DNA of 64,000 nt from Nemertoderma westbladi (lineage: Eukaryota; Animalia; Xenacoelomorpha). The position numbers and the translations under genes were made by a program. Location of the stretch: NCBI GenBank assembly GCA_032718475.1, contig JAUCBJ010007556.1, forward strand, positions 10,074-74,073, read 5' to 3'. Shown one piece after another: positions 8,046 through 64,000 of this stretch. Each line of letters opens with the position of its first letter. The stretch's first letter is position 1. The notes under the pieces are model-generated. The model was not told where the DNA came from and did no database searches. It saw nothing but the letters and a program-made list of their open reading frames with translations.

Positions 8046-8084
8046 CTGCGTCGAACCGGATTGAATGTGGGGGAAAGCCACGTT

Positions 8085-40174: not shown

Positions 40175-42668
40175 TAGAGGTAGGGGGTATGGGTCAGATT
40201 TTTGGTGATGCTCTCCAAATTAGCTTGGGACATATTTTTTCGATGCATTAGGGCATATGGGCATAATATTCACAAAAAATTTGAAATTTTAGTCCAAATT
40301 CATCAGCAGCAAGCAAAAAAATTGAGCGGTACCCACAATGCGCTCGAGCGATAATGGATTTATGATAATTTTGCTTATATACCAACTTCTTATAGTCGTA
40401 TTGACTTGATTTTGGTTTTATTTTAATCGCAATCGCAATTTAGTGTGGGTAGATGTCACCATTTAGTCATTAAACACTATATTTCTTAAGATATGGGTCA
40501 TTTGCCATACAATTTTCATTTTTATTTCGTACCGATTGGCGTCAGATCTTATAAGTAGCACAGCAATGCATTATACAATTGTATTTTTTTATGTATTTTT
40601 TATTTTTTTTTTATGTATTTAAGTATATTTATTTATTTTTTTGTTTCTTTGCTGAAGAATTTGTAAATATCACTTGCATTCGTGAAATTTCATCAGTCGA
40701 ATGTTGAATAATTCCCATTCTCCTATAACTGCACAGGTCAAGATTTGATCTTTATACACATTATGGATGTCAGTCATCTGGAACAAGCTATTTCCAGAAT
40801 GTACCAGGATTCATCCTTCCCAAGTGCTCGACTACATATTCGAACTGTTTCCTAGTTGTTCTTTGTAGTACCATATGTCAGTTTGTACCATAGTTTCTTG
40901 CCTTTTATAGGCTTATCCCAGATTGTGGCGCACATGCTATTTTATTGGTACAGATCTGATTGATTACTTATTCATAATGATGGATGGGTGGGTGGATGGA
41001 TGTCTTGGACAGTGATAGCGTTGTTACTTGTTATCTGGAAAATATCATCATTAGAAGGAAGTTTGATTTGTTCTCTGTTGTTTCTAGAAGCAACGTGGCT
41101 CTCATCTGATAATAACACAGCTGGATTCTCAACCATTCCCTCATGGGAAATCTTAATGAGCCGAAACAAATTTGGTCTGGCAATAACATCAGACTTATGA
41201 TAACGTTTGGAAAAAGCCTTTAAATGCGGCTTTTCAGAATTGATTCATGCTTATCAAGTGAGGTGCATGGTCCATATTTTACAATCTTAAAGAAGCTTCA
41301 TAGTATAATCATTATGAGCGAATGTGTAATCATGTAATCACAGTGAGATGCTATGCCTATTTTATTTAGAAGCCTCTGTTTCTGGAGAGCTTTTTGGCTT
41401 TGAGACAATCTATCCTCCCTTTCACGGAGAATGGATCAAACTTGTCGAGAAATTCTTTCAACAATGCCTTTTCAGCCTGATATACAGTACTGTAACACCA
41501 TATCATCAGTGCGAATCCCTTAGCAGTGAACTTGGCATTACGAAATTTTGCTACTACCGCCAAGTGTCTAAGTTTGGCAAGATCCCTTTCAGCTTCAATA
41601 TTATGTCTTGGAAGTTGTATCAGATCTTCAGGATCAATCCCAAACAATTCAGTATCTCGTGATTTCTCCCCTGCCTCTTTCGAAAATCCATATTCTCGAC
41701 CACCAACTACACTGAATATGAATTACCTCAGCCCTCAGCTGCATGAAGGCACATTTTATGCATAATGGCCTTATCAAAATCAGTTTGGGGATTTCTTACA
41801 GGATTTCTTGTCTTAGCCAGATTGTTCAAAACAGTTAAGCAAAGGCAATGTAAAGAATGCAACTAATGCAAGGGTTTGGAGCTCTGTAAGGAAAAATTCA
41901 CAGCTGATATATACAGTAGATTACATGCATCCACAAGTAAGTTTGTCTTGTATGTCTCTTGTAGAAGCATCTGCAGCAATGGAGGGCATGAAGAAGAGAT
42001 ACATAGCCAAGCTTTGTGAAGCGCCGTTCATGATACAATTATCATATATTTTACTTGGCCTTCACGTTCTACAATAAGGTCAGAATTGGCTGACTTGTCA
42101 TGAGTGACAAGTTTAAGCAAGACATGAATGCCAGCAATCAGTAAAGCTTTCTTGCCCCTAAAAAAAGGCCTCAAAGATGGATTTATTGCCTCTAACCTAT
42201 CTCCTGATTTTACAGATAAATCAAGCTGAGATAATACACAATACAGTAATATTTAAATTATCCAATCCTTCTACAGTATGACCTCATTAGGCATCACCAG
42301 ATGCTAGATTCGGCATTATAGGAATTTTCTGAATCGAATGACATATCACATGCCCATATAAACTAGCTTTTTAAAATTTATTTATTTTTTATGTCAGAAT
42401 TATAGTAAAAATACGATAAATTTTGTTAAATCTACCATAACTTAAGAAATTTAGTGTTTAATGACTAAATGGTGACATCTACAACAGTACCCCCACTAAA
42501 TCGACCATTGCGATTTAAATGAGTCCAATATCAAGTCAATACGACCATAAGAAGTTGGTATTTTTTGTATTTGATATTTAAAATTTTTGTGAATATTATG
42601 CCCAAATGCATCGAAAAAACATGTCCCAAGGTGATTCTGAAGACATGACCTTATACCCCCTACCTCTA
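40175..42668 (-). mobile_element. hAT-superfamily (hATw-like) DNA transposon, internally deleted, 7-bp TSD ATATGAG
   Basis: Termini TAGAGGTAGGGGGTAT / ATACCCCCTACCTCTA with long imperfect TIRs (~40175-40495 vs ~42435-42668). ATATGAG at 40168-40174 and 42669-42675. Confidence 0.82.
41366..42240 (-). pseudogene. Decayed transposase fragment
   Basis: Frameshifted pieces LLKLVTHDKSANS, YHERRFTKLGY, TNLLVDACNL, CEFFLTELQTLA..FTLPLLNC and PRHNIEAERDLAK (candidate catalytic E in an NxxxER motif), lying between the TIRs. Confidence 0.7.
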
Positions 42669-44119: not shown

Positions 44120-44784
44120 TTATTGGTTGGACGACTGCTGGGAAGATTGCTGCTGCAGCTGATGGGAACATACGAGCAACGCATCGTGGATATCCCGAGC
44201 GCTGTTTATCTGAGTCTTTATAAGGGAGAGATAGTGGGAGTAGGATTGCGTGGCCTCCTGCGGGGGTTGTCCAGGACTCTGGTCCGGGTTAGGGGTGGGG
44301 CGTCCCCATACTCATGGGATGAGGGGACGTTAAGGGGCGTGTTACGTGAGCTGTCCGCCCCCTGCGAGATGCATTCGTAGGCGAGTCGCAGGTTGAGATC
44401 GGCCTGGTCGCAGACCGAGTAGAACTCCTCCAATGCGCGATCGACCCTCGGGGCGTTACTCTCCAGCCCAACGAATTGGTTCACGTCGATCTGGGCGTTC
44501 TGGCTGAAGTTCAACCCCGCGACTTTCAGTAGATTCGTGACGCTTTCTTTGAGTCGCGGAATGATCGCCTTAAACTCGTCAATGGGATCGGTTCGCGCGA
44601 CACCGCTGGGAATCGCCACGCCTATTTGTTCCGAAATCGGACCTGGTGGATGTTGTTGTTGCTGGGGAGATGGCATGGGTTGTTGCATGTGTTGTTGTTG
44701 CTGGAAGTGTTGCATTCCAGCCAGCATAGCCGGAGATTGGCCTCCGCTAAGGTGCTGCGGAGTCTGGGGACTGGCGTAGGCCAT
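44120..44784 (-). CDS. MED29: Mediator subunit 29 (intersex), single exon, with an apparent 1-bp frameshift near 44290
   Basis: DPIDEFKAIIPRLKESV..RVDRALEEFYSVCDQ..LRLAYEC matches the Med29 core. The conserved C-terminus YSHYLSLIKTQINSARDIHDALLVC is in another frame, ending at TAA 44120-44122. Confidence 0.92.
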
Positions 44785-45266
44785 AATTATGTAGGCCTAT
44801 GAGACAGCTGGGCGTGGGTGAATTCAGACAGATAGGTGACGGTCCCGGTGAGGTACAGCTGTACAGAGACTGACGGTGAATTTAGCTGACACACTACCGA
44901 TTAACGAGTATACCGACCTGCCGACTGAGCGACACATTAAGCAAGGTGCCAACTTTTCATTTAGGGCTACTCATCTCACGTGGCGTGGGTTAAACTGAAC
45001 TCAGTATTCGTATGCATACGATAGCTATCGTATTTGCCTATCCCTATCGTATTTGAGTCAATCGTATTTGAGTCAACCGTACAGCCGTATAGCCTACAGA
45101 TATCTGCGCTGCACTTGTTACAGCCTACTACTGTACTAAGTAGTACTACTGTAGCTTCTTGTACTTGGTTATTATTGGTTCATTTATCCTTCCTTGCCTT
45201 ACAGCCTTAACTTTACCAGCTTACTGCATACTGTAATACAGGTTAACATTAATTAATCATTGAAAT

Positions 45267-46658
45267 TGTTGTGTCCTCTACGGTAGGGGACTACCCTACA
45301 GCCTACAAATCTACTAATACGAAGCTATAGAATATCTCTATCCGTAAAGTCCAGTAGTATACCGCTTACCAGATCCTAGTAACGATGTATCTTACTAGTA
45401 ACTTGCCGCGGTGTGATTTATATGGTTTATATACGAGCTAGGTGGGTTACAGACCTAGCGTAACAATACTGATCTCCCTGTCTGAATCAGCCTAAAAGGG
45501 GTCGTGCCTAAATGTAACAATAACTGATCCCCCTGTACGAAATCAGTCTAAGAAGGGTCGGGCCTAATGTAACAATAACTGATGCTCTAGGCAAACAACA
45601 GTTTAATAACGAAAATGAAATACTCCCTCTTGCCGTAACTAAATATCAGATCCTAATTTTACAAATACCGAAAGTACGATAAATATATTCTGCCTAAAGT
45701 GATCTAAAGTGCGCTATAACTAGTAGAATTCTAAGGGTAAATATGTTTTAGGGCGTGTGTGTGTGTGTGTGGGTGTGTTACAATAAAACAATTTTGGTGT
45801 ATATCATTTCACTAGGGTTTAGTGATTTTCTGACCGAAATAATACCATGCAGCCGTGCGCTAGCTACTAAAATAAGCTAGTCGCGTTTGTAGAACTTTAT
45901 ACTTACAAATGACGTCAAAGCTCTCTCCTTCCTATCCACAACTCAACTGGGCAACCACGGTGTTAGTAACTACACCCGTGATCGGCACAAATACCAGATT
46001 CTGGTTGTAAGATAAGAAATAGGGGTTAATTGCTACCGTACGTTAGCTGATCTGGTATACAAATTTGATTCTAGAACTTTGTTGCTGCGGTAGTTAGCAG
46101 CAATACCTATCAGTACGTGGCAGCGTGGCAAGGCGTGGTAGGATATTAATAAAACCTCCCTAGGCCAAGCCGTGTGCCTGTAGCAGTAATACTCCTTGCC
46201 TGATCAAATAACCAACTTCAGGCAGGGGGGGGGGGGGGGGGGGGGCGGTGGGTACTAATGTATATTCTACAGAGCGAACCGGTACCAAACGGTCAGTACT
46301 GCGAATCACTAAATTATGAAACATATGCTGTCTGTACCTAATATGTACTCGCGTACTGACGGACGGCAATAATTCGCACCTGTGAGGTATACAGGTAACC
46401 CAGGGATTCACACTACTGACAAGGGGGGGGGGGGGGGGGGGGGGGGTTCTGCCTAAAATATAGTTATTTGATCCTAAATTTGCGGCGTCCCAGGACGGCG
46501 TCACGCTTACCCTGATCTATAGGTCTTACGTCGGGCAAGGGCGTCAAACAAAGTCTTACCTTCCTCATAAAGCGGGCGCTGCATGGCAAGTGGAGTATCT
46601 CGAAGGGCGAAGGGGGTGCGCGGTCTAAGCTAATGTGGGCGCTAGCGTGTTGTGGACA
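45267..46658 (-). repeat. BEL/Pao LTR copy 1 (terminal 3' LTR; 280-bp internal deletion)
   Basis: Sense TGTCC...CACAACA, preceded by the purine tract GGGAAAGGA. Near-identical to 49222-50852 except that it lacks 49351-49630. Flank GAAAT (45262-45266) is a candidate TSD. Confidence 0.85.
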
Positions 46659-46787
46659 TCCTTTCCCTGCGTTGCTGACGGCCTAACGGTCTAGGCGGCC
46701 ATCTTCCCGATGCTTGTTTGTCCCAAAGTTGGACGTTCAGAAAAGTACATGTTCAGAAGTTGATAGTATATTTACAGTTTACAAAAC

Positions 46788-48079
46788 GAGTTCGAGTTTA
46801 GTTCGAACTGGAGCTGCATCTCCCTTTCGCGTTGATCTGTTTCCTGTTGTTGTACCGCTAACTCCGCTTCCTGTATAGCTAAACGAGTGTTTATTTGTCG
46901 CGCTTCCAACTTGACACGAGCGTCGGATGCTGCTTTCTTCCGTGCTAACTCAGCTGCGTTTACCGCCGCAACTCGCGCTAGCTCGTCAGCCGCTGCCTGT
47001 CATACTAACTCGTCAGCTGCTGCCGCCTGTCGTGCTAACTCGTCAGCTGCTGCCGCCGCGGCCGCTTCTCGCGCTAAGTCCTCCTCCAGTCTCCGCATCT
47101 CTGATGCTTTGAACTCAGCCTGCGCTTGAAGTTTCGCAAGTTTCGCTACATCCTCTCTGCGCTGTCTTTCTCCTTCGATGGCGATATGCGCCATCTGCCG
47201 TTGCGCTTCTTCCTTGACGACTTGTTGTCGGCGTGCGACCTCATGTTGTTGTCGAGTAATTACAGACGCTGTTCTACTAACGTCGCCAACGTCGCTCCGC
47301 ACACTAACGAACGATCTATCCAGTGGTGGATTTTGGTAGGCTCGCGAGCCTTCCGTAGTAAGAACTTCCGTCGTCCCTTGCGGTTCGACTTCCGGTTCTT
47401 CGATCGGTACGCCGTTTCTACGAAGAAAATTGGTGAGCGTCCCTAACCTCCCGTCCAGGCAGTATAGTTCTTCTTCCTCTTCGGGTTGTAACAACGCGTC
47501 CGAAACTGACTCACCTAGCAGTTGGTCTAACTGCTCCTGTTGAGCCGATCTTATTTCTGACTTAAACTGGATAATGCTTTCTCTCGCACTTACCAATTTA
47601 TCTATTATCTTTACCTGAGTAAAGTTGTCTCCACGCAACTCTGCAAGTTCGTGTAAACCTTTCAGTTTATCTACGGAGGCATGTACCCTACTTTCTATCC
47701 TTACCTGTAAGGTGTAGAACTCGTATCTCGACATCGGGGTGGTTAACTCGCTTAAAACGCGAAAACCTTCTCCGAGGTTTCGAGTAATCTGGGCCATGTG
47801 TCCTCCTATACTTCTAATGACATTTTCTTGGCTTCCCGCCAAGCTTACCATGTCTGGTTCCCGTGACCTAGTCTGCGGGACTGCAAGGAAATCCTCGATC
47901 CTGCCGTCGCCACGCATTGCGGCTTCCGGTATTTCCGTTTGGGGTACCGGCGACGCACGCGGTGTGACATCGGTGGAATCTCGGGTTCTCCTTCTCGGTT
48001 CGTCTACTGTCGATCTGTCCGGGTCGCACGAGTCATAGTCGGTAGGGGGGTATCGAGTCAAATGCGGTGTGTCACTCAT
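46788..48079 (-). pseudogene. 5' part of gag of an internally deleted second unit of the BEL element
   Basis: Coiled-coil and Ala-rich ORF after the LTR and ~1.1-kb 5' UTR. Contains the element's 20-nt hairpin. An in-frame TGA at 47000 interrupts a repeat. Homology breaks at 46788 into 3' UTR sequence identical to 50853-50981. Confidence 0.7.
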
Positions 48080-49040
48080 GTCTTATTATATACGTCAAGT
48101 ACGGGTAATAAAATGTCAAAGTATCTGAATGTTGAAATGTCAAACTTACCTTGGCATATATAGTGCATATATACCCTAACCGGTACAAATAAATCAACAA
48201 AGTCAGAATGTCGAAATGTCAAAATGTCGAAATGTCCAAATGTCAAACTTACCTTGATATATATATATCATATATATACCCTAACCAGTACAAATAAAAC
48301 TAACAAAGTATATAATAAAATATGTAATAATCTAGCCTACCAGCTAAATTTGTACGAATAAATGAGATAACGGTATACGTTACCAAAATGTAGATCAACA
48401 AGTACAAATAATAGGCAAAACAGCAACGTCTAATGGGAAAATAAGTACCAATAACACTACTAATTAGACAGTGAAACCCACAAATTTTGAGTACTACTGT
48501 GCTTTCTTAAGTTTGAACGACACGAGTCATAAAACTTACGCTCCTTTGATCTTCCAGTCGTGCAAATTCCCAAATACAAACCGGACGTGGGTCTTTCGGT
48601 TTTTCGGTGGCGCGGACGAATTTTTTGTCTCCCAAACTTTGCGAAAAGCGGTCTAATCCTCGAAGCGGTCCAGAAATGAGTCCTTGAGTCCTGAAAAGTT
48701 GAAGGTGAGAGTTTTACTTCTACTCTACGAAAATCTTCCTAGGTAACGATACAACTTGGTCTTTAAACCCTATGTACCTTTTCAAGTACCGAAAATAACA
48801 CCGCACACACACGGCGTAAAACAAAATGCTACAAACTAACTATTAGCTAGTCAAATATTAAATACAAAAGTACTAGCTACCCTAAAAGCCTACTGAAGCA
48901 GGGGACGTTCTACAAATTACTAAATTTTACTAACCTTAAGATTTTAAATATCTCCTACTTACAATAGCTAACAATATATATTTATTTATATCTCACTTTA
49001 AAATGCGCACGCACCTTCAGTTAAGATATTTAATAAAATG

Positions 49041-49228
49041 TATACCTCACTGTTGTGAGGTAAACAAACATATACCACTGCAAAGTATATCTCTCACTTT
49101 CGTAAGAAAAATATACCTCACTGTTGTGAGGGATCAATACTATACACTAATTTGTATAATATATACCTCACTGTTGTGAGGGATCAATACTATACACTAA
49201 TTTGTATAATATATACCTCACTGTTGTG
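49041..49228 (-). repeat. 50-bp tandem repeats with CCTCAC-AACA-GTGAGG hairpins at the expected PBS position
   Basis: TATACCTCACTGTTGTG occurs four times (~49041, 49112, 49162, 49212). Confidence 0.85.
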
Positions 49229-50852
49229 TCCTCTACGGTAGGGACTACCCTACAGCCTACAAATCTACTAATACGAAGCTATAGAATATCTCTATCCGTA
49301 AAGTCCAGTAGTATACCGCTTACCAGATCCTAGTAACGATGTATCTTACTGTAAGACTCTAGTAATGAAACGGGCTCGTACAGTATCTGACAACAAATCC
49401 CGGTCCAGGATATCTAAACAAACAGATACAATACACAAACTACTACTGGCGAGGAGCAGAGCCTGGTGTCTATTCTATGTACGTGAGCGGGTCTAATGCC
49501 TACGAACTAGACAAAAGGATACCTGTCCTCTAACCGGTATGGCAGATGTACAGTTACAGTAACAGACCAAACTCACGGGAAAACAATCCCCGCGCAGCGA
49601 ATCCTAACTATCGCTGACAGTCCTAAATACAGTAACTTGCCGCGGTGTGATTTATATGGTTTATATACGAGCTAGGTGGGTTACAGACCTAGCGTAACAA
49701 TACTGATCTCCCTGTCTGAATCAGCCTAAAAGGGGTCGTGCCTAAATGTAACAATAACTGATCCCCCTGTACAATATCAGTCTAAGAAGGGTCGGGCCTA
49801 ATGTAACAATAACTGATGCTCTAGGCAAACAACAGTTTAATAACGAAAATGAAATACTCCCTCTTGCCGTAACTAAATATCAGATCCTAATTTTACAAAT
49901 ACCGAAAGTACGATAAATATATTCTGCCTAAAGTGATCTAAAGTGCACTATAACTAGTAGAACTCTAAGGGTAAATATGTTTTAGGGCGTGTGTGTGTGG
50001 GTGTGTTACAATAAAACAATTTTGGTGTATATCATTTCACTAGGTTTTAGTGATTTTCTGACCGAAATAATACTGTGCGCTAGCTACTAAAATAAGCTAG
50101 TCGCGTTTGTAGAACTTTATACTTACAAATGACGTCAAAGCTCTCTCCTTCCTATCCACAACTCAACTGGGCAACCAGGGTGTTAGTAACTACACCCGTG
50201 ATCGGCACAAATACCAGATTCTGGTAGTAAGATAAGAAATAGGGGTTAATTGCTACCGTACGTTAGCTGATCTGGTATACAAATTTAATTCTAGAACTTT
50301 GTTGCTGCGGTAGTTAGCAGCAATACCTATCAGTACGTGGCAAGGCGTGGTAGGATATTAATAAAACCTCCCTAGGCCAAGCGGTGTGCCGGTAGCAGAA
50401 ATACTCCTTGCCTGATCAAATAACCAACTTCAGGCAGGGGGGGGGGGGGGTACTAATGTATATTCTACAAAGCGAACCGGTACCAAACGGTCAGTACTGT
50501 GAATCACTAAATTATGGAACATATGTTGTCTGTACCTAATATGTACTCGCGTACTGACGGACAGCAATAATTGTGATGGTAACTGTGAGGTATACAGGTA
50601 ACCCAGGGATTCACACTACTGACAAGGGGGGGGGGGGGGGTTCTGCCTAAAATATAGTTATTTGATCCTAAATTTGCGGCGTCCCAGGACGGCGTCACGC
50701 TTACCCTGATCTATAGGTCTTACGTCGGGCAAGGGCGTCAAACAAAGTCTTACCTTCCTCATAAAGCGGGCGCTGCATGGCAAGTGGAGTATCTCGAAGG
50801 GCGAAGGGGGTGCGCGGTCTAAGCTAATGTGGGCGCTAGCGTGTTGTGGACA
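49222..50852 (-). repeat. BEL/Pao LTR copy 2 (~1.63 kb, shared between the two tandem units)
   Basis: TGT...ACA ends, purine tract at 50853-50861, TATA-like GTATATAAA near 49660-49668, ~54-bp tandem repeats upstream of it. Confidence 0.85.
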
Positions 50853-51270
50853 TCCTTTCCCTGCGTTGCTGACGGCCTAACGGTCTAGGCGGCCATCTTC
50901 CCGATGCTTGTTTGTCCCAAAGTTGGATGTTCAGAAAAGTACATGTTCAGAAGTTTATAGTATATTTACAGTTTACAAAACTTTATCAAATAGAATTGCC
51001 AAATAGTTTCGACAAGAAACTAGGTAAACTAAGGAAGGGATAAGTTAAGGTGATAACTAGTGATAACCGAAGGCAAACCAGCCCTTTATATACTAAATCT
51101 GGGACATAGAATCCACTAGAATTTTCTAGAGTATTCCATGGCCTCACATTGGAGCAATAAGATATTCCATGCCCTATGATTGGCCCAACTCATCGTTCCA
51201 TGTGTTGTACGCACCTCATTGGTTTGTCAATTTGTATGAAATGAAAATAAATTGCCCCAAAATGCAAATT

Positions 51271-51340
51271 TCCCGACTGGGATTCGAACTCGTAACCTAT
51301 GTAATGCAACCAACGCCTTAACCATCTGACCACTACGCCA
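51271..51340 (-). pseudogene. tRNA-like (Pol III A/B-box) segment in the retrotransposon 3' UTR
   Basis: GGCGTAGTGGTCAGATGGTTAAGGCG...GAGTTCGAATCCC. D-arm plausible, anticodon and acceptor arms degenerate. Confidence 0.6.
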
Positions 51341-52129
51341 CGAGATTAACTAGGGGTTTTATGTGTACTGATATGAATAGGCATATTACATTACTGTAAC
51401 TTAATCAAAATGCGTCGGATTTTCGAAAGTTTTTACGTTATACTACAAATGCTATCCTATAGTGAAATAATTCATCACCGCTCCATGAAAACAGTAAGTA
51501 AGACTGTTTTCACCAATCGAAATACAAACTTATTTACAAATACTTCTAAATCTACTGGTAGGGCCTAAAATATAAAATAATCACTATCGAATTATTGCAT
51601 ACTTAATATTGCAGGTACGGCGTAAATACAATCTATCATACATACAAAATACAAATTTACCAATCAACTTTAGTGCATAAAATACAAAAAAAGGCTTTCG
51701 GTTATCAAGATAAACAAATTAAACAAATCAGAACAAAATAAATCAAAACAAATCGAACAAATAATTTCAAATCTTTCAATAAGTTTTATATATTGTAAAT
51801 ATACATAATAAATTCACTAAATTAAATCAGTCCAAATATAAAATAAACATAATGCGCTAATAATCTTTCAAATAAATCCCAAAGTGTCCTCCTGACAATC
51901 TTAAAAGTTCGTCCTGCTGGTCTGGATATATTCTCCTGAGCACTAATTGCTAACGGTAGGCTCGCAAGCCTTCCTTCTCTATCTCGCTCCTCCAAACCCA
52001 ATTTCCAATATAAATACTCAAATATAAAGTGTCCAAATATAATATCCCAATATAAAGTGTCCAAATATAATATCCCAATATAAACATCCAAATCGGTAGG
52101 CTCGCAAGCCTTCCTTTCTTCTCGCTTTT

Positions 52130-53632
52130 CTATTCCTTGGCCGAACGGGCTCGTCCACACCCTCTAGTACGACTGGGTGGTGGTCGAGGTCGAACTGGAC
52201 TCGGACTTCGGTGTCGAGTTGTCGGTGGTTCCAAAACGCTAGGAAATGGGACGACGGGAGTTTCGCACATCCATTGTGCGCTCAGTCCTCTAAATCCTCG
52301 TCCGATTCCAATCGTCGGCTTAACATCGGATCGAGTTTCTACAATGCTGGGAGGAAGTCGAAGGGGTGGGACTGTTCCGTCCGTTGACACCTCGCTCTCT
52401 GATGTCGTTTGAATCCTAATGGGTTCCGGCAAAGCGTATCCTGTCCCTCCGCGTGGTTCTCTAGCAAGGGAAACCGTGCCCCGAGTCATCCGGATTTGCG
52501 ACTTCGATGTCATCCTCTCGGCGACATTTACTACTTTCTTTATCTCTTGTCCGGCCTTTTGGGCTCTAAGTATACGAAGTTGCGGATCATCCTGTGGGTG
52601 ACGCGTCTTTTGAGCTAACGGCGTGGCCTTGAAGCCAGTCTCACGCAAAACGTCGGTCTCGTCTAGAATGCACGAGGTTACTCGTTTGTGATAAAATGCG
52701 CTCCTGTATGCCCAAGCTATCGAATGCCAGGCTCCTCGATTCCGCTGTTCAACTCGCAATTTGTCGAATTCCCCGGCGGTAATCTTGTTCACCACAGTTT
52801 GAAAGTTCCAAGTATTCTTGTTGTCAGGGTGTACCTGTAGAAAGTAGTCCCGCACAACTTTAAATCCGCTATCCAGTGGCAATATATCCAGCACCTCCAA
52901 AAGTTCGTCGTATTGAGGCATAGCCGACACGTATCCTTCCTTCGACATTATGAGAGGGTTTACGGCCCAAAATCCTAAGTGTGCTCTCATAGGGAAACGG
53001 CGTCGCTGCGTTGATACATGCTCGTCTGCTAGATTCTCCCAATGGTCGAATAGCTGTCGAACGATTTTAACTGACATATGCTCATAGGGGACGTCTCTAA
53101 GTTGACATTCGGATGCCCTATGGCCTTTAATATTACAATACGTGCACTGCGCCACGAAACGCCAGCAAGTGCAGAAAGTGTGCAAACGCTGATCCCCGCA
53201 CCAGTTGCATACCAAGTCCGGTAGAGATATGTGTTTCGCTCCGCATTTCTTTGCGTGGTGGCCAGTTGCCCCGCATCTGCCACAAATAGTGTTGGCAGGG
53301 TACCAAACTCGCTCATAGATAAGATCTCCGATGGGGCGAGCGCTATCGTCCACGTGATAATTCTCATCATCCGGGTCAGTCGGTATGTTCGTCTCCGTGG
53401 GTTGTACACAAACCATGGCATCGCTTTTCTCCAACTCGCATATTTCAGTTCGCGTCTTCCTTGGAAGGTTCTCCTCTATTTCTATGAGTTGCCGCAACGG
53501 TTCGTCTATTATCGCCAACTCGGTCGGATCCACATCGTCGTGATGGGCGGTAGGCTCGCGAGCCTTCCAGGATCCTTCCGGGCCTTTGAATTCCGCGTGG
53601 CATTCCTCGTCATAGGGTACTAACGTTAACAT
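52130..53632 (-). CDS. Retrotransposon accessory ORF-C: three CCHC-type zinc knuckles
   Basis: 500 aa with CGRCGATGHHAKKC, CNWCGDQRLHTFCTC and CTYCNIKGHRASEC. Located between integrase and the 3' LTR. Confidence 0.8.
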   Translation of the reverse strand: MLTLVPYDEECHAEFKGPEGSWKAREPTAHHDDVDPTELAIIDEPLRQLIEIEENLPRKTRTEICELEKSDAMVCVQPTETNIPTDPDDENYHVDDSARPIGDLIYERVWYPANTICGRCGATGHHAKKCGAKHISLPDLVCNWCGDQRLHTFCTCWRFVAQCTYCNIKGHRASECQLRDVPYEHMSVKIVRQLFDHWENLADEHVSTQRRRFPMRAHLGFWAVNPLIMSKEGYVSAMPQYDELLEVLDILPLDSGFKVVRDYFLQVHPDNKNTWNFQTVVNKITAGEFDKLRVEQRNRGAWHSIAWAYRSAFYHKRVTSCILDETDVLRETGFKATPLAQKTRHPQDDPQLRILRAQKAGQEIKKVVNVAERMTSKSQIRMTRGTVSLAREPRGGTGYALPEPIRIQTTSESEVSTDGTVPPLRLPPSIVETRSDVKPTIGIGRGFRGLSAQWMCETPVVPFPSVLEPPTTRHRSPSPVRPRPPPSRTRGCGRARSAKE

Positions 53633-55056
53633 CGACGGTCTGTCGACGTTAGGCTTCCCGCGTGAGTGAGATAGACGTCCCTGAAAACGCTAAGTCCCGC
53701 TCCCGTGAAAACTTCGCAGTGCGCATTGGTGTTATAAAAGGGTTGGAGAAATCGTCGGAATACATCAGTATGCGTCCTTCCTCCATCGTAAAAGGTATGT
53801 CCTTCACCGAGACATAACGGATGTCGCTTTAAAGTCCTAGACACTACATCGGCGATGAAGCAAACGTTGACCGAAAATTCTATCGCCAAGTAGTATTGTA
53901 AGATTATTTGCGGAGGTGAAGTAATCGCCCAGTACATGCAACCTCGCCACTTTAGCTGTGACTCGAACTCGTTTACGTCGGGAGTATCTCCCTCTCCGTA
54001 TACGTCCGTGTATTTGCTCCTCTTACTCTCCTTATAATCCCAACTGAACATTAGATATGAGATATAACCCGTCCCAGTTTTTAGCGTGTTATACTCCCTA
54101 AAATATCCTTGCTCAATAGCCCAAAGCAACAATGGTCTAGTATCCACGTATGGCGTAGGCAATCGATCCTCTTCCGTGGGCATCCCTGCGAAATCGCTGA
54201 TAAGGTCATCCCGTACACCGGATCCGATCTTGACGATGCTCTTGTCTAACACAACGTCTCGCACGGCCTTTGGCAACATCCTAGCTTCTATGCTACAAGC
54301 CAGGTCCATGGATTTAACTATCCATTTTATCATCGCGTGTCTTTGCGTCGTTCCTTCCGGCATAGGCATCTTTCTATCACTCCTTTGTCGGCTGAAGACA
54401 TGTAACACGCCATCTGGTGCTCTAATCTGTATAGTCTTCAAAGTGAGGCTTTGCTGGTGGCTTCCTCCTTCATTATCGTAAAACATGTAACCATTCTCCT
54501 TCAGAGATCGGCTAGTCACGTCCCAATCGTCGAGTAAATCGTTGGTAGGGTTCCAAATTCTCCCAATCGACTTTTCATCATCGAAACTAATAGGTTTACC
54601 GGTCCAATTGGTCGCGATATCGGTGTCGGTCTCAAATGTTCCGACTCCAATCCATAATCGAATCGTTTTCGTTAGATATCCTCGCAAGATACAAGGTGCG
54701 ATATCCGTCCCCGCGCGATCCACTTCCTTAAAGTCCGTAATATGTGGAGGCACGTTGCGTACGATTTTCTGAACTATTGTTCTACGCAACTCGGCTGACT
54801 CTAACACATCATCATAGGTAACCGATGGGAGGAAATCCAGGTTCGAAATGATCTCCGGGTGTTCAACTATAGGAATCTCGTAAGTTGTCTCCTTCCGGGT
54901 CGGTATACTAATAGGAAAGCTAGTTGGTCTCGCAACCGGTACTATCGTTCCAGCAGAATGGGGTTGAGGTTCTCGCGTCATCTCGACATGAGGTATCTGT
55001 AGTCTCTGCGACAAACGCTGAGCAAAGGTGATACTATCGAAGAGCTCGGGTGTCAT
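53626..55056 (-). CDS. Retrotransposon accessory ORF-B: WRN/EXD/Mut-7-type DEDDy 3'-5' exonuclease-like protein
   Basis: 476 aa. ExoI-like FYDNE, TIQI, ExoII-like LPKAVRDVVLDKSIVKIGSGVRDD, YVDT, and degenerate ExoIII QYYLAIE. Confidence 0.72.
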   Translation of the reverse strand: MTPELFDSITFAQRLSQRLQIPHVEMTREPQPHSAGTIVPVARPTSFPISIPTRKETTYEIPIVEHPEIISNLDFLPSVTYDDVLESAELRRTIVQKIVRNVPPHITDFKEVDRAGTDIAPCILRGYLTKTIRLWIGVGTFETDTDIATNWTGKPISFDDEKSIGRIWNPTNDLLDDWDVTSRSLKENGYMFYDNEGGSHQQSLTLKTIQIRAPDGVLHVFSRQRSDRKMPMPEGTTQRHAMIKWIVKSMDLACSIEARMLPKAVRDVVLDKSIVKIGSGVRDDLISDFAGMPTEEDRLPTPYVDTRPLLLWAIEQGYFREYNTLKTGTGYISYLMFSWDYKESKRSKYTDVYGEGDTPDVNEFESQLKWRGCMYWAITSPPQIILQYYLAIEFSVNVCFIADVVSRTLKRHPLCLGEGHTFYDGGRTHTDVFRRFLQPFYNTNAHCEVFTGAGLSVFRDVYLTHAGSLTSTDRRC

Positions 55057-55891
55057 CTCCTTGGGTTCGGTTTGATCGTGGGATATCCAATAGAATTGTA
55101 GGCTCGCGAGCCTTCCGCCGAACTCCTCGATCTCGCCTTTCTCGTACGCCTTGTAACGCCCTGTAGAGGCTCAAAGCTTCCCGTTTCTCTTGCGTCGACT
55201 TGTTAGACTCGTCCACTACCATGCTGTAGACGTCTGGTTCGACTAATTTAGGTTCGTAAATAACGATCTCACCCGTGTTCGGTCCACTCATCTTAAATGA
55301 ATGATACGGATTCATCAAAGGGTATCCGCCTTCTTGGTAACGTAGACTTTGGTGGTATGAGCATCGCGCTAATATCGGCTCGGGGTTCTCCGAGTTCAAC
55401 CGCATAGGAATCGCGTTGTCTTGCTCGCGCATACATGCTCCACATTTGTAAAACAGTTTGTATATGGAGAACGCGTCCTTTGTCTCTGGATCCGCTCCTC
55501 GAGCGTGTCTATAAAGATGCATTCCTTCGAATTCGTCTCTAGCTGCAGGTAAGGGTTCGTTTACCGTCAAATATTGCAGCATATGATATAATCGGCGTAT
55601 CTTTGTGTCTGGATCCTCGCAAATGTCACTAGCGTCGCATAACGCATCGTAAGGATATAACGCATTGAACTCCGTGCGTAATTCCTCCGTTCTTTTGTTA
55701 TAAGCGTCCAATCGCTGTTTAGTCACATTCGGGTCCGCCTTGGATTTAGCGAGCTTGGCTGTACTCCTAGCCATACTCTCCACTCCAAACACACTAAAGT
55801 TTTTAGCTCCATAATGATTAAACGGCACCTGGTGCTCTTGTTCCTGCGTAAACCCCTGACGTAACTCTTTAGAAATCTTCTCCGCCATCAT
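55034..55891 (-). CDS. Retrotransposon accessory ORF-A, unknown function, possible metal-binding CxxC...CxxH
   Basis: 285-aa ATG-initiated ORF with CGAC...CSYH, directly downstream of a canonical 3' splice site. Confidence 0.65.
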   Translation of the reverse strand: MMAEKISKELRQGFTQEQEHQVPFNHYGAKNFSVFGVESMARSTAKLAKSKADPNVTKQRLDAYNKRTEELRTEFNALYPYDALCDASDICEDPDTKIRRLYHMLQYLTVNEPLPAARDEFEGMHLYRHARGADPETKDAFSIYKLFYKCGACMREQDNAIPMRLNSENPEPILARCSYHQSLRYQEGGYPLMNPYHSFKMSGPNTGEIVIYEPKLVEPDVYSMVVDESNKSTQEKREALSLYRALQGVRERRDRGVRRKAREPTILLDIPRSNRTQGDDTRALR

Positions 55892-55925
55892 ATACGCGTA
55901 TATATGGTTACATATCGTTACGTTT

Positions 55926-55955
55926 CTACTAGATGAAGCACAAAATAGAGGTTAG
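55926..55955 (-). promoter_or_regulatory. Candidate 3' splice site for accessory-cassette mRNA
   Basis: CTAAC branch point, pyrimidine tract CTCTATTTTGTGCTTCATC, then TAG/TAG, ~35 nt before the ORF-A ATG. Confidence 0.6.
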
Positions 55956-56630
55956 ATGTGAGGTGACTTAGAGTTTGTCGGCTTTTGGCTCAACTTTGCT
56001 CTAAAACCCCAACCCATTTGCCTAATGACTTCGGGTTCGCGTGATTTCGCACTGGCTCCTAATCCAAAAAATGTGCTGATAAAAAACGAATTCCGGGTAA
56101 ACTAGCCGCGAGTCTTAAATACTCACCTTTTAATTTCCCAAACTACATTCCCAAAGAAATAATGCAGTCGAGAATTAATTCGGTCTAAATAATAGTAGAC
56201 ACGACTACGTAGAACAAGGCCGATTTTCTTTTCCAAAAAAATTTATTGGTAGGCTCGGAAGCCTTCCATCCACTCTTGTCCTCCCCAATTTTAATTTTTT
56301 TATCTAGCTGTATTCTAGAATTCGCATTCACTGGAGAATCATTTTTCTTAAATTTAAATCCAACTAAATGGATTTGTCTAATAATTTTTGAAAAATTGTC
56401 TCACTTGTGGGTTCCAAGTGGAATTCCATTCCTACTGTACGTACACACAATCCCGCTCCTATGTGATACATAAGGGTACTACCCTCCATGTTCACATATA
56501 AAGACAATGGAATTCCACCGCTGTCTCTATCTATAGTGAAGAGGATTACAAATGCACATACAGTAATACAAAATACTAAATTACTAAAATACGGTAAGTC
56601 TATGTGGCGGCCAACAAAGGTCCCACATCT

Positions 56631-59600
56631 CTATTTACTAATATTGGGTGGAGATTTGTAGTCTCCTGTCTCGTTTCTAGTCTCCTCAAGGAGTACGAGA
56701 CGTTGTACAGGTCTGTCTACGGTACGACCGTCGATAGTCCTTACAGTAACTGTCCTTACTACACCAGATGTAGGGTGCGTGGTCAAAATGACTCCAGTCA
56801 GCCAAAACCGTCTTTTCAGATTGGCTTCAGCCAATAAAACGTGGTCACCGCGTCTCAAACATCGGGTATTAAGATACCAAGAGGTTCTGGTCGAAATAGA
56901 GGGCAAATAATATTTCTGCCATATTTCCCAGAATTTATTTGCAAGCAATTGAGTGATTTTCCAAGCTTTGTTGCCGTATCCGTCGCTATCAACGGGTACC
57001 GAAATGGGCAACAATGTCGTCGGCGCCTGCATAAGCAGGTGCGCTGGTGTCAAGTCAAACTGTACATCGTTATTGTCTGGGATCAAAGCGATCGGTCTAG
57101 TGTTTAAAATCGCTTCGATTTCTATTAGTAACGTCGTCAGTTGGTCGTCTGTCAAAATGTGTTGCGTCGGTATTACTTTAGCCATAGCTGTCTTAATTGA
57201 GCCAATCAACATTTCCCAAACGCCGCCTCTCCACGGACTGTCTGGAGTATTAAAATACCAAACAATACGGTGAGGACGTAGTTCCTCGGAAATCTGGTTT
57301 TGGTCCAACTTCCTTAAAGCCCTGGTTATTTCGTTCCGTGCACCCACAAAGTTTGTCCCTTGGTCACAATAAATGGATTTGACCAATCCACGTCTAGCGA
57401 TAAATTGCCGTAAGGCTAGGATAAAGGCATTGGTGGTCAAATCTGTCACACGCTCAATATGGACAGCTCTGCTGGCCATGCAAGTGAAGATCAATCCCCA
57501 ACGTTTTACCTGTACCCTTCCGAGTTTCGCGATTATGGGTCCAAAACAGTCTATCCCTGTCTCAGTGAAAGGGGGTCTAAACGCCTGTAATCTCGCTAGT
57601 GGTAGTTCACTCATTTCTTGGTGTCCTATCCTCGCGTGCACCTTCTTACAAATCATACAGTTCCGTGTTGCTGAACTCAGTGCCTTACTAGGTCTAATCA
57701 GTACAAACCTCAATCGTAAGTGTGATAGACAGTGGTGTCTACCCACGTGTTTGAGTTGTACATGTGCGTCCAGTATCATAGCGCGCTGTAATTCATGGTG
57801 TTGCGGTATGATCATAGGATACCTAAAGTCTAGTGCAAAGTCGATGTTTTGGAGTCTGGACTTGTGACAAAGTAAGCCCCGGTAAATAATCGGACTCCAA
57901 CTCAAAATCGGTGAAGACTTGATCTGTTTACCTTGGTTGATCGCTGTGAACTCTCGTGCGAAATATCGCAATTGATAATGTCTAATGATATCAACTTCAC
58001 AATGACCAACTTCCTTTAAGGTAAGTCTTCTAGGAAAGTCGCGTTTGCCTCTGGCATATTGTCTCAAACATTTGAGCCATGCTAACTTGCGGCACGTGTC
58101 AGTCCATGATCTAGTTAGGTTTACTATCCTGTCAACGTAAGTGTTAGTGACGTCATCAGGTAAGGTATAGTCATAGTGTGGATACTGTCTGGACTTGGTA
58201 GGCCCATGGGCCTTCCGGTAGGTTTGTCTGAGTCCCCAAGTATGTCAATCTCTACGGTCTTACCTTTACCATCCGCTCCTAATATGTCAACTGGCAGTAA
58301 CGGTTTCAACTCTACGTCTGGCGAAAGTCTGGCGTAACTTCTGTCAGAAAGTCTGGTCTAAAGTCTGGTGGACAGTCTGTCGAGATGTCTGGTGGAAAGT
58401 CTGGTGAGACGTCCTGTAGACATTCTGTCGAGAGTTCCATAAAACAGTCTGGCGAACAATCCGGAGAACAATCTGGTGTCGCTTCTGGTGAATAATCTGG
58501 CGAGTAATCTGGTGAACAATCCGGCAAAACGTCTGGTGAAATCTCCCGCGGAACATCCGGTGAAAGATTCGTACGAACGTCTGGTCGAGAGTCTGGTGAG
58601 ACTTCTGGCATAATGTCAGGTCTAGCGTCCAGGTCATCAGATTTCGTCCGTCCTTGTTTTATCTTGACCTTGGCATTGGCTTTCGCTTTTGATTTGACAA
58701 CCTTGTCGATTTTTATCTCGGCACCCTCTGGTATGGTATTGGTTGTCGCATCAAATAACGGTGGCCATTCGTCTGATGGTCGCTGTAGGAAATTGGGTCC
58801 TCTAAACCAAAAGGATTTATTGTCCGGTTTACAAAAGTCAAGCGGTTGCATTCCCCGTGACGCGATGTCGGCTGGGTTCAGCTTCCCTGGACAGTGACGC
58901 CAATCTTGTTTGAGCGACCGGTCTAATATTTCAGCCCGTCTTTTGGCTACGAAAGTCTTGAACTCGAACGCTTCGTTGTTTATGTACCAAAGTACCAACG
59001 TCGCATCCGTCCAATAGGTGACCTTCAAGTTAGCCTCCAGCTCGCGTTGAACTAGACTGACAATATCGGTGGATATCATCCCAGCTTGCAGCTCTCCACG
59101 AGGTACAGTCATATACTTCAATGGCATTGTTCTAGCCCTAGAAGTAACGAGAGACACATTGTAGCTGTCCGATGTCACTTGTCATCTAAGGTATAAAGTA
59201 ACCCCCAATCCATCCTTGCTAGCGTCACTAAAGCTGTGAAGCTCTAAATCGGCAGGAAAGGTGGTCTGCAAAGGAAAGTATACCCTTGGTATGGTATAGT
59301 CTTGTAGGAACGTCAGTTGGGCTTCCCAGTCCCTCCATTGCTCAGCTAACTTTTCTGGGATGGGGTCGTCCCATTCCAGTCCGGCTTGCCAAATGCTGCG
59401 GAGTATGATCCTAGCACGTAGGATCACTGGACTAATGAAACACAATGGGTCATACAATCAACTCATGGTCGATAAGCAAGTCCTCTTAGTGAGAGGTCTA
59501 GTCTGGTCGTTGGACCTTACACGTACCCTAAAATTGTCGGTGTTAGGGTCCCAACTAAGTCCTAATACTTTGGTCGTTGGTAGAGGTTCTAGGTCTAACT

Positions 59601-62600
59601 CCAAGTCACCTCCACTGCGATCAGTCGGGTCAAATGAGTTCACTAGTTCGGGTTCGTTGGAAGCGAACTTCGTCAGGCGGAATCCGCCCTCAGCGAGACA
59701 ATCCTGGAGTTGGTGTGCTATGGTTGTAGCGCGCTCCAAAGTGTCACAACTCTTGAGGCCGTCATCCACGTAGAAATCTCATTCCACTGTCCGAACTACT
59801 TCTGGGTCAAATTGGTCTCGTCTGTCCAATGCGGTCTGCTTTAAGGCGTACATGGTGCAGTTGGGGCTGTCCCTGGCTCCGAAAACTCGTACCTGCATTT
59901 GGTAAGTTTCTGGCGGAAGTTCTAAATTTCCGTCCGGATACCAAAGAAACCTCAGACTGTCCCTGTCCCGCTCCAAAGCCTTAACGTGGTGAAACATGGC
60001 CTCTACGTCACAGGTGAAAGCCACTTTGCGTTGTCTAAAACGCATTAGGACTCCCATGAGGTAATTATTCATATTCGGCCCGTCCATCAATTCGCTGTTC
60101 ATAGACATCCCTTGGTAAAGCGCGGCGCAGTCGTTGACTACACGCATCTTGCCAGGTTTGTCCGGGTGTCGAACAAAATGATGTGGCAGGTAATATGTCT
60201 GGTCTGTGGTTACCTCGGGATTTAACATCCTAATGGCGTATCCCTTTTGGGATACGTCTGAAGTTGCGCATTGTATTGCATATGGGCCGTCTCGTCTCGC
60301 AACAATCGCTGCCTTATTGATTTGAGTCGCCTCAAAGCAAGCGGGTAATTGTTAACAACCTTAGGTTGTCCATTTGCGCCACAACATGCCAACCTCATAG
60401 TGGCCATTCGCGGTCTGGCGAATGGTATCTCTCATAATATTTAATGACCGTTTTTCCTGTTCTGACATAGTGGTCTCGTAACTACCGGGTTCTGCTGAGT
60501 CCTGTTCCAACCATTGAATGGTCCGTTCAGTCAGCAGTCGGTCAAGCGCTGCTTGCACTGCGCCATGGTCCTCGTCCACATCTTCGTCCGCTGCGGCGGC
60601 TAGTGTCAATGTGTCTGGTAGGCTTGCAAGCCTTCCGGTGTCACTAGTCGGCGTCAAATCATCGTGCGGCGGTTTGACAACTTCTTGATCTGTCGGTAGG
60701 CTCGCAAGCCTTCCAAGATCAACGACCGGTGTCGAAGCCTGGTGGGTGGGGTCAATGACCTTTGGATTTTTCGGTAGGCTCGCAAGCCTTCCAAAACCCT
60801 CGTTCATCGAGTCATCCACAGCAACAACCCTTTGGTCTTCGGTAGTCAATACAACCTGGTCTACTGCAAGTAGTTGTAAGTCAGAGGTCCGTGTGGTCGT
60901 GTCCAGATCAGTTACGTCAGTATCGGTTGCGTCTGCGTTTGCAACGCAAGTCTGTCGTAGTGCCGTCCGTACAATTGGACCATGGGAGTGTGAAGGAGAA
61001 TTATCTATCGTAGTTGTCAATAAACTACACGTACTCAAAACGTCGTCCTCCTGGTCACTTACCTCTAGTGAATGTACTGGTGCTCTAGTATACCAACCTA
61101 TGGGAGTTCTACATGCGTAGGGGTTGCCCGCTGTAATAACAGATGGGCGTGTCTCCCATACCTGATGTAAGTTAAACTGGTCTGTCCCGATTAACATCGC
61201 GATGGAACGATAGTTAACAGGACATTCCGGTATTCCAAGGTGTCGGAAATACTTACAATCTTCCGGTGATTGCTCTGGCACAGGGCCAAGCAAGTTACTA
61301 AAGTCCTTCGTAGCTGCAAAGGTCAAATTTCTTACTGGAAGTAATGAGCGCTCCTCCTTGCTGTGTTCCGCTTTGGAAAGAAGAGTGTCTAAGGTTAGTT
61401 TTACTCTCATCACAGGAATCGCTCTCTTACCATGCATGCTGCTTACAGTATACTGAGCAGTCTTACCTTGACTCATGTCTGTAACCACGTCGGCTACTTG
61501 TTCGTCGACATAACTATGGGATGACGCAGCGTCCAAGATAGCGTATATACGCTTGCTCCCTCGGGTTCCAGTAATCTTTATAGGAATCACGCTAAACCCT
61601 TTCAATTGGTTCTGTGTGAGGAGTGTTACCGATGGCTGTTCCTCACCCGCATGCACGTAAAATGTGTCGTCTTCCTCCTCGTCATCGTCCGATGATCCCG
61701 ATTGATCCATACAATCCGTGTAGAAAGTACGAATCTCGCGCGGCACACGCTCCTTATAAAGCGCGTCGCATCTAGCCGCTTTATCTGGATGCTCTCGTCG
61801 AAAGCGTCTGGTCGGAGTATGACTGGTAGTGTGAAGTAACGCGTCATGGTTACGTCCACACAGAGGACATGTATCGTCGCTCGGGCAATCCTTCCGGACG
61901 TGTCCTGGCTTCGTACATCTCCAGCAAGAATCCAAAGATCGAATTTGAAGTCTTCTCTCTTCGATTCCTAACTCCTTAAAAGCGCGACATCCACGTAGTT
62001 TATGTCCACTATGGTTTCTGCCGTTCCGCTCGCAGTATGAGCATCCCGCAAAGTCCGCCGGCAACTGTTGTCGTGGCTGCGTGGTGCCGATAGGCGTCAG
62101 AACTTTAGAAGTCTCAGTAGGGGTGGCGTAGGTAACGGCTTTCGCGTTCGTCGGAAATGGTTTAGTCCGATTCGGCGCATAAATAGCTATCCCTTCTGCC
62201 GTGATATGATGATCGGTATAGTTCGATCGAGTCTCGATCACGGCCTCCCGCGAAATCAGTTGGTAGACGTCGGTGAGTTTTAGTAGCCCGCCGGCCTCTT
62301 CACGCTGGTACTCGATGCGTCGCCATTCTCGTCGAAGTCGATGATGAAGTCTACCGATTATTCGAATGAGAACCGTCGGTGCGTTAGCGTATTCGAGTTG
62401 TCCAATGGACCGTAAAGTCCCTATAGCGTTCTTAATTTTGTCCGCGAGTCGTAATAGGTCGATCGGTTTCAAAATGCTGCCTCCTCTGCAGAGGTCTTCA
62501 ATAATGGATTTAGCCATGGCGACATTACCTCCGTAAATCGAATATAGACGGTCGTACGCCAACTCAAAGGCATCTGGAACACCAATAAAGGTTTCCGCTA

Positions 62601-64000
62601 ATCGTTTCGGCTCACCAGACAGGACTAGGAGCAAGTAATTAAACTTCTCCGTTGAGGTGAAAGCGCACTTAGCGATCTGGGACTCTACGTAGTCTACCAA
62701 TGTTCGCCAGTGTTTCGCATTGCCAGAGAACTTCGGCAGTTGTTGTGTTGGTGTGGTAATCCGTGTCTAGCTGCAAATTTCACAATCTCGCTAACGAAAT
62801 CCAACTGTCCGCGTCCCTGTTCGGTTGCGTCGTCCAGTCGTTCCCTTCCGCGCGTTGTTCGTCGGTAGGAATTATTAACGGGATCTTCTTCTCGATGGGT
62901 CGGAGTCTGTCTAGTCTCCTGTTCTCTCCTTGGTGGTCGATGTTGTCTAGGTTGTTCTAACTCCATGCTGGTTCGTGATCGATCCGACGGTTGCGCTTCG
63001 AGTCGCTCTTCGAGTTGAGCTAGTCGGTCTGTCATCTCGGTGAACTGTTTGGCGCTGATCGTCTCCACTGGTTGCAACGTGGGTTTCTGCAAAGGTGTTT
63101 CTCGTGGAGGATTGTCGATGTAGGGGTTCGTCGCGCTCTCCTCCCGTTTGTAATCAGCCGCAGCTGCCGCTCCAGTACGGAATATTTCCCGTTCCGTCGA
63201 CTCCGAGTCACTGGATGAGTCGCTGTCATCCGGATAAGGTGGTTGGTGGGTACGCGTCCGGCGTATTACCTTTTGTCTCACTCGTTGGGGTCCAGAATCT
63301 ACGGTTCTCCGTCGTTCGGTAGGCTCGCAAGCCTTCCACGAAGTCGTAGGTCTCGATAAACGTTGTTCGATCCTGCGGGTACTACCCACATCCGTCCTCC
63401 TCCGTTGTTCGTTAGGCTCGCAAGCCTTCCACGAAGTCGTAGGTCGCGTCGAACATTGTGTCAAAGGTCGAGTAAAGTAGTTCGGTTTCATAGTCGGTCT
63501 ATAAATAACTGGGTTCGCACCAGACGTCACAGGTTTAACTTGTAATGGTTTACTCACCTGTTTTACCATCATAAACGCAGGTTCGTCTCTCTCTACAAGT
63601 AAACTACAGCTTACTGTAGGTGGACTACTTATCTTACCTGCGAGAATCGGCGATGAAGTCGCTCGTGGCTGCGGAATCGATTCCGATATAACAAACCTAT
63701 TACCTTGTACGGGTGATATTTCCTTCGGTTTTGCAACCATAACCGGTTTTACTGGAGTCGTGGGTTTGAGCATAGGAATAACTTGGGGAAAACGTTTACA
63801 GTAATCCTCGACGAACTCCTCTCCTAGATCTATCGCTCCTACACTTCCTTCCTCGATTCGCTTCTGAATTCCACGATACCGAGTCTCCATGCGATCCAGG
63901 GCAGACAAGTCATGTCCGGCTCGAGATCTTATAGATCTATCTCTCGCGTCGAGTTTGAGGTCCTCTTGCGCGTTCGCCGCCTCGCGCGATCTGCGATTTA
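56631..64000 (-). pseudogene. BEL/Pao gag-pol polyprotein with several frameshifts and in-frame stops (runs off the window end)
   Basis: Domain order: gag (DUF1759-like KFNYLL..LSGEP; knuckles CWRCTKPGHVRKDC, CPLCGRNHDALLH), protease AILDAASSHSY, RT (YYLPHH, RVVND, DVEAMF, FGARDSP, FYVDD), RNase H (LHSFSDAS, YWTDA, NPADIASRG), integrase (H..H..C..C, DCFG, DQGTNF, WRGGVWE), C-terminal FW..W...Y and RPVQRL. Confidence 0.95.

Follow-up and report, generated by a model that had tools for sequence, protein, structure and literature searches.

The 64,000-nucleotide (nt) stretch of Nemertoderma westbladi (Xenacoelomorpha) DNA analysed here, referred to as the window, corresponds to positions 10,074 to 74,073 of the forward strand of contig JAUCBJ010007556.1 (assembly GCA_032718475.1). 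It carries a multi-copy long terminal repeat (LTR) retrotransposon of the BEL/Pao group, a group named Belpaoviridae by the International Committee on Taxonomy of Viruses. Downstream of the integrase of this element and upstream of its candidate polypurine tract (PPT) and LTR, in the env slot, lies a large open reading frame (ORF), here called ORF3, with a predicted exonuclease-like domain and zinc knuckles. The features are collected in Table 1. Literature is cited by PMC identifier, each citation covering the part of the source that was drawn on.

Table 1. Coordinates of the element, of ORF3 and of its domains in the window
Feature	Position	Strand	Basis
Decayed BEL gag-pol (Gag triple Cys-His box, protease, reverse transcriptase, RNase H, integrase)	56631..64000	-	frames, Pfam, motifs
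Non-coding spacer, integrase stop to ORF3; tolerates indels	55895..56630	-	7 of 12 listed indel rows
Predicted intron of ORF3 leader, about 200 nt	55929..56126	-	consensus donor 56128; acceptor ending 55929
ORF3, a single frame of about 1,250 codons when joined; breaks near 55155 and 53648	52130..55894	-	frames, indels in other copies
Piece A: N-terminal 246 residues, CxxC and later Cys/His cluster	55157..55894	-	translation
Predicted DnaQ/DEDDy-like exonuclease domain	53800..54525	-	ESM Atlas, alignment, block score, model
ExoI DxE	54477-54469	-	alignment
ExoII acidic block	54219-54205	-	alignment
ExoIII candidate, YxxxE	53895-53878	-	motif inspection
Three zinc knuckles: a variant flanked by two CX2CX4HX4C	53105..53284	-	motif scan
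No-family region, then low-complexity Pro/Arg/Ser-rich tail	52133..53104	-	translation
Five 20-nt hairpin copies in and around ORF3	51955, 52095, 53549, 55097, 56248 (51955..56267)		repeat and motif scan
PPT candidate, 10-nt purine tract directly before TGT	50853..50862	-	sequence scan
LTR candidate, 1.63 kb, TGT...ACA	49222..50852	-	repeat comparison with 45267-46658
Part of the second unit (internal deletion): 5' leader and gag N-terminus of the family	46797..49221	-	contig joins; hairpin copy at 47335
Second LTR-like copy, 280-nt deletion, same PPT candidate ahead	45267..46658	-	repeat comparison

ORF3 in the env slot of a BEL/Pao element

Upstream of ORF3, Pfam matches to DUF1759 (E 1e-8), Peptidase_A17 (E 1.2e-5) and DUF5641 (E 1.8e-18) were obtained, the last of these at the integrase, whose stop at 56631 precedes the ORF3 frames. 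Three Cys-His motifs were found in Gag by a motif scan with a pattern after PMC554778. The protease, reverse transcriptase, RNase H and integrase (PR-RT-RH-IN) follow in that order with YVDD and DAS motifs and BEL-specific Pfam families, and the protease motif is a variant form. In the window copy, gag-pol has decayed and contains several in-frame stops as well as breaks of frame. The LTR boundaries were inferred from two copies only (49222-50852 and 45267-46658), which showed 20 mismatches in 1347 aligned columns. A join of 63996 to 46797 was seen in contigs of three of the four DNA runs examined, which identifies 46797-49221 as 5' sequence of this family; the far end of the window copy itself lies past 64000. 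With an internal region of about 15.6 kb and two LTRs of 1.63 kb, the element comes by arithmetic to a length near 19 kb; the upper bound used for full-length BEL/Pao elements in PMC3118150 is 15 kb.

In the env slot, three minus-strand frames are free of stops (55034-55951, 53626-55170 and 52130-53689) and overlap one another. Read from the ATG codons chosen in the initial annotation, which had been made from the sequence alone, they encode 285, 476 and 500 amino acids (aa), referred to below as pieces A, B and C. Other copies of the family were examined as short contigs of four public DNA runs (X1 to X4, from at most three samples), of which 4749, 3250, 2405 and 144, respectively, aligned over 51900-56700. 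These thousands of variant contigs show that the family is large. Insertions or deletions (indels) with a share of 20% or more gave 21 rows, 12 of which were listed. Of those 12, seven fell in the 736-nt spacer, three in the 230 nt beyond the final stop and two in the 3,765-nt coding stretch, and these two sat inside the frame overlaps, one at 53648 and one at 55155. In copies carrying both, the three frames share one register. At 53648, the share of depth that disagreed with the window was 1117/1276 in X1, 5531/6174 in X2, 6613/7005 in X3 and 174/174 in X4 (88 to 100%); at 55155 it was 5042/15544, 5180/10588, 7400/7898 and 174/174. Among 36 substitutions in the coding stretch, which are the best-supported of 399 rows and not a random sample, 19 were synonymous where 11.5 were expected (p 0.008).

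The simplest reading is that ORF3 is a single gene, some 1,250 codons long, that is under coding constraint and is interrupted at two points in the window copy. It was read as one ORF and not as three genes because the indels in both overlaps of other copies put the frames in register. Several points weigh against this. The indel at 55155 accounts for 32% of the depth in X1 and 49% in X2, compared with 94% in X3 and 100% in X4, so the join between pieces A and B is less uniform, and there may be a subfamily in which piece A is separate. The remaining nine of the 21 indel rows could contain further indels, the substitution sites were selected as stated, and only two of the eight differences listed for piece B were synonymous. 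For the anatomy alone, confidence is high.

ORF3 is integral to the element, because coverage is continuous, hairpins are shared and the cassette has no repeats of its own. Coverage was unbroken over all 30 bins of 45000-64000 in X1 to X3, the depth of the cassette was within the gag-pol range (summed contig depth is not a copy number), and contigs rarely continued into unlike sequence (share 0 to 0.06). The two flanks of the cassette had no inverted repeat of at least 10 nt in common, and their two direct 10-mers were a hairpin copy and an AT-rich word. The hairpin is a near-palindrome of 20 nt, of which 11 copies (at most two mismatches) were found in the window, all in element sequence and none in positions 1-47000. 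The copies span 47335-63430, through gag, pol, ORF3 and non-coding DNA, with the nucleotide sequence conserved across two reading phases; those at 53549 and 55097 are inside the ORF3 coding region. The hairpin is a candidate packaging or protein-binding signal, and an Rfam search gave nothing over the gathering score. Contig joints that link one hairpin copy to another through sides of 20-24 letters were taken as assembly artefacts.

A deletion form skipping 52260-55326, and with it 3,065 nt of ORF3, was present in X2, X3 and X4 at depths of 1259, 1686 and 145, well above the single-contig level in these three of the four runs. That the ORF3-deleted form has been amplified indicates that the element can do without most of ORF3 in cis. 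For a distant BEL element (L001, 33% integrase identity), no long same-strand ORF was seen in the only 740 nt available before the contig ends. The initial annotation had placed three overlapping same-strand ORFs with two internal hairpin copies in the env position of a BEL/Pao element. The frames, the hairpins, the position and the BEL/Pao membership all hold on the evidence above; the three-ORF module was replaced by one ORF that is in pieces in this copy.

ORF3 is probably expressed from its own spliced message, apart from Gag-Pol. The acceptor of the predicted leader intron was the best of 26 candidates, with 16 pyrimidines in 20 positions and a branch-point motif 24 nt upstream, and it lies 35 nt before the ATG. 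Among 2000 dinucleotide shuffles, the donor arose in 57, the acceptor in 55 and both in order in none, by splice-site criteria that were set after the sequence was seen. Spliced messages are described as typical of ORF3s in PMC5408684. A further run, X6, which may be of RNA, gave 41 contigs over the region, none of them covering 53876-55143, and was left out of the reading of expression.

Predicted domains of the ORF3 protein

The middle domain, which is unbroken in the window copy, very likely has a DnaQ/DEDDy-like fold, a prediction on which four weaker lines agree. The ESM Atlas score was 0.88 with the whole 476-aa frame as query and 0.92 with residues 195-450, the first match (0.92) being a cluster with PF01612 on 92% of its members; PF01612 was present in 24 of 30 matches. 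In a MAFFT alignment, without further aid, the residues D, E, Q, K and D fell on columns that are invariant in 43 bacterial family members. The ordered-block score was 28.2, compared with 8.1 +/- 4.9 for shuffles (28.2 was reached by 1 of 300) and 80.5 for RNase D; ExoI contributed 3.4 and ExoII 21.6, with the ExoI DxE and the ExoII D present. The hidden Markov model (HMM) score of 3.8 bits was matched by 2 of 1000 shuffles. Finally, an AlphaFold model was compared with DEDD-fold chains. The best Z was 11.3 (root-mean-square deviation 3.9, 156 residues aligned), followed by RNase D at 10.1 and WRN at 9.9. The model was built with 42 family rows cut before ExoIII, and its guided part is not independent evidence; the Atlas match was obtained independently of it. 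As the RNase D match covered 155 residues over positions 12-178 of the chain, the unguided last helix likely occupies the place of ExoIII, and the YxxxE candidate is near the start of this predicted helix. The nearest folds include Nibbler, EXD1, EXD2 and Egalitarian, and EXD2 ranked first in Foldseek (E 1.1e-3, TM-score 0.31).

A number of results speak against the assignment. True family members typically share 170 features, and the first Atlas match falls slightly short at 167. The ExoIII block scored -4.2, and the canonical YxxxD is absent, YxxxE being the best candidate. The HMM score of only 3.8 bits spans ExoII alone. The AlphaFold model is middling (predicted local distance difference test (pLDDT) 62, predicted template modelling score 0.51, residues 167-211 under 50), with its first two thirds guided by DEDDy rows, and a single-sequence model had low confidence (pLDDT 31). 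No Foldseek match reached E 0.001. The domain had no match in Pfam, PDB sequences or protein databases, and hhalign against an NrnC-like alignment gave a probability of 0.3%. A match probability of 99.6 was discarded as circular, the alignment having contained the query. Only bacterial proteins named ribonuclease D were returned by one search. Piece B matched nothing among 1.84 billion representative proteins, proteins of near length or metagenome contigs, a phage search gave no match, and no close host source of ORF3 was found among those representatives.

As ExoIII is without YxxxD, the domain was filed as DEDDy-like and not as a canonical member. Whether it would be catalytically active, with Glu as the fourth acidic residue, is judged evenly balanced.

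The other parts of the protein could be assigned less fully. Piece A belongs to no family in Pfam, PDB sequences, PHROGs or NCBIfam. The knuckles matched Pfam zf-CCHC at E 0.0028-0.0037 (17.7-18.1 bits, below the cut-off of 20.8) and are not clearly derived from Gag (blastp against the Gag box, E 0.055). For piece C, nothing was found among longer proteins, viral contigs, PDB sequences, PHROGs or NCBIfam; the integrase likewise had no match in viral contigs. A 47-residue match to DUF896 (E 0.0027) in the PHROGs and NCBIfam scans was far under its cut-off, and a 25-aa match (L157) was taken as chance. No transmembrane (TM) stretch was present in the pieces (maximum Kyte-Doolittle values for a 19-mer of 0.59, 1.67 and 0.78), and a motif scan found no furin site in any of them. 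By hydropathy and motif scan, with no dedicated signal-peptide predictor run, ORF3 has no envelope feature, and its protein is predicted to be soluble.

The domain labels of the initial annotation fared unevenly. Its view that none of the frames looks like an envelope protein agrees with the missing TM stretch and furin site. A DnaQ/DEDDy-like domain in the second frame was recovered from the Atlas score, the ExoI and ExoII motifs and the partly guided model, and the DEDDy exonuclease label held for ExoI and ExoII and failed at ExoIII; the Pfam DNA_pol_A_exo1 match expected for this frame was not obtained. The triple zinc knuckle is sustained for two canonical motifs, the third being a variant. 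Of the Cys/His ORF, the CxxC and the Cys/His cluster stand, with no family match.

Proposed function and comparison with known systems

Zinc knuckles bind single-stranded RNA. Translation of a separate spliced message would yield ORF3 as a soluble protein some 1,250 residues long, and its knuckles would bring the enzyme to single-stranded RNA, such as small RNAs and the precursors of these, or transcripts of the element after cleavage. There, as an RNA-binding enzyme with 3'-5' exonuclease activity that works in trans, it would blunt host RNA silencing. As to the substrate, DNA-specific enzymes (diDNase, Pol I and WRN) are also among the nearest folds. A soluble protein with knuckles and an exonuclease fold, apparently made apart from Gag-Pol and dispensable in cis, would fit best with such a trans-acting RNA exonuclease. 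The whole chain, from env-slot gene and spliced message to an RNA exonuclease that counters silencing, is postulated tentatively and is given somewhat less than an even chance. To our knowledge, suppressors of small-RNA silencing encoded by animal transposons have rarely been demonstrated.

Two other functions were considered, both on the unlikely side. ORF3 could be a catalytically dead, exonuclease-like scaffold, in the manner described for EXD1 and Maelstrom; it would then bind RNA of the element, shield it or carry it, possibly at the repeated hairpin. This is not the expected outcome but has a real chance, given the non-canonical ExoIII, the three knuckles, the dispersal of 11 hairpins that are maintained in non-coding DNA as well as in two reading phases, and EXD1 and Egalitarian among the fold matches; dead DEDD derivatives are also noted in PMC5408684. 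The D and E of ExoI and the D of ExoII are nevertheless retained on invariant columns, the YxxxE is placed at the predicted last helix, and the rotifer ORF3s likewise have a D-to-E change (PMC5408684). An active exonuclease could also serve the replication of the element itself, by trimming the 3' ends of RNA or cDNA or by proofreading the reverse transcription of an unusually long genome. The estimated length, which exceeds the 15-kb bound (PMC3118150), and the WRN and Pol I domains among the fold matches are compatible with this, as is the end processing proposed for rotifer and Dada DEDDy domains (PMC5408684, PMC3706591). It is considered unlikely, as ORF3 would be translated separately from Gag-Pol and has no known way into particles, the copies are diverse, and Sinbad, a BEL element without ORF3, transposes (PMC554778).

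That ORF3 is a captured passenger of no benefit to the element is improbable. The amplified form without 3,065 nt of ORF3 would be expected of a passenger, and the rotifer ORF3s show no clear departure from neutrality (PMC5408684). Even in the decayed window copy, however, about 1,250 codons are free of in-frame stops, 10 of the 12 listed indel rows (of 21) are concentrated in flanking non-coding DNA, synonymous changes are in excess and no close host source was found. Least credible, and to be given very little weight, is that the cassette consists of three distinct genes that overlap, or that it entered as a nested insertion of its own. In X1 and X2, at least half of the depth at 55155 is without the indel, and nine indel rows and 22 joint rows lie outside those listed, which would leave room for separate genes; the indel between pieces B and C, however, is in 88 to 100% of the depth in all four runs. 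A nested insertion is opposed by the continuous coverage, the shared hairpins and the finding of no terminal inverted repeat. The trans-acting RNA exonuclease is retained as the working proposal. A more far-reaching version, in which an LTR retrotransposon of about 19 kb would have its own active exonuclease with zinc-knuckle RNA readers, guided by the hairpin and destroying silencing RNAs or proofreading, as a counterpart of the arenavirus and nidovirus ExoN, is doubtful as a whole. Roles of ExoN in nidoviruses and arenaviruses are given in PMC7968707.

DEDDy ORF3s have been described in the Juno and Vesta elements and the Terminons of bdelloid rotifers (PMC5408684; PMC6431247). As in the window, a DEDDy-type ORF lies there downstream of pol, replacing env and having no TM or envelope features, and one catalytic Asp is read as Glu (PMC5408684). 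The changed residue is the fourth in the window ORF3, whereas the rotifer form is DEED (PMC5408684), and the protein that contains the window domain also has three knuckles and is about 1,250 aa long. The rotifer ORF3s belong to Juno, Vesta and Penelope-like Athena, not to BEL/Pao, and are likened here by description; no rotifer Juno, Vesta or Athena DEDDy ORF was among the matches of the protein searches with piece B. Within BEL/Pao, Sinbad and the env-bearing Tas and Cer7 have the same triple Cys-His Gag, PR-RT-RH-IN order, YVDD and DAS (PMC554778). In Tas and Cer7 the slot after the integrase also holds an extra gene, but that of the window element is not an envelope, and Sinbad is 6.3 kb long compared with about 19 kb here (PMC554778). 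The Dada DNA transposons of Laccaria and Ectocarpus also carry a DEDDy exonuclease domain, but inside a DDE transposase and with all four catalytic residues kept (PMC3706591). The cellular EXD2, WRN-exo, Nibbler/Mut-7, EXD1 and RNase D share the predicted fold and the ExoI and ExoII motifs; ORF3 differs from them in its identity of 8 to 21%, two insertions, the non-canonical ExoIII and the appended knuckles.

No exonuclease ORF in BEL/Pao was reported in the literature searched, which excluded subscription journals, Repbase entries and supplements, and the part of PMC8556966 drawn on makes no mention of an exonuclease. DEDDy capture itself is already known; what is new here is the capture of an exonuclease-like domain in the env slot of a BEL/Pao element, the large knuckle fusion and the unusual length. 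BEL/Pao elements have been described as gag-pol with at most env, and a large, conserved non-env accessory gene with an exonuclease-like domain, carried by a successful multi-copy family, extends DEDDy capture to another retroelement superfamily. With ORF3-bearing and ORF3-deleted forms in one species and the domain unbroken, the family offers a testable case for the function of a captured exonuclease.

Second unit and other features of the window

The second unit (45267-49221) comprises a leader, the gag N-terminus, about 130 nt of the 3' region, a PPT and an LTR, the last of these common to it and the main element. The point of its deletion (about 46790) coincides with the family position at the window end (63996-64000), and the arrangement may be permuted or assembly-derived. 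In a scan for the primer-binding site (PBS), no TGG was found directly after 49222, with six CA..TGG candidates further on. Repeats of 50 nt adjoin the LTR (49027-49231), with the LTR-end word occurring four times, and no conventional PBS was identified downstream of the LTR. Tandem repeats of 12 nt at 58323-58605, between RNase H and integrase, encode (S/T)PD-rich units. The 3' non-coding DNA at 51270-51345 has a tRNA-derived look by eye, and ARAGORN calls no tRNA gene there.

Outside the element, a large array of a 35-bp satellite occupies about 21700-36000. Pairs of long inverted repeats at 5769-8938 and 40204-42650 enclose 2 to 2.6 kb, a typical structure for non-autonomous DNA transposons. 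An uninterrupted Med29 frame (44221-44796, minus strand; Pfam E 7e-29), which represents a host gene or a retrocopy, lies some 470 nt away from the end of the LTR.

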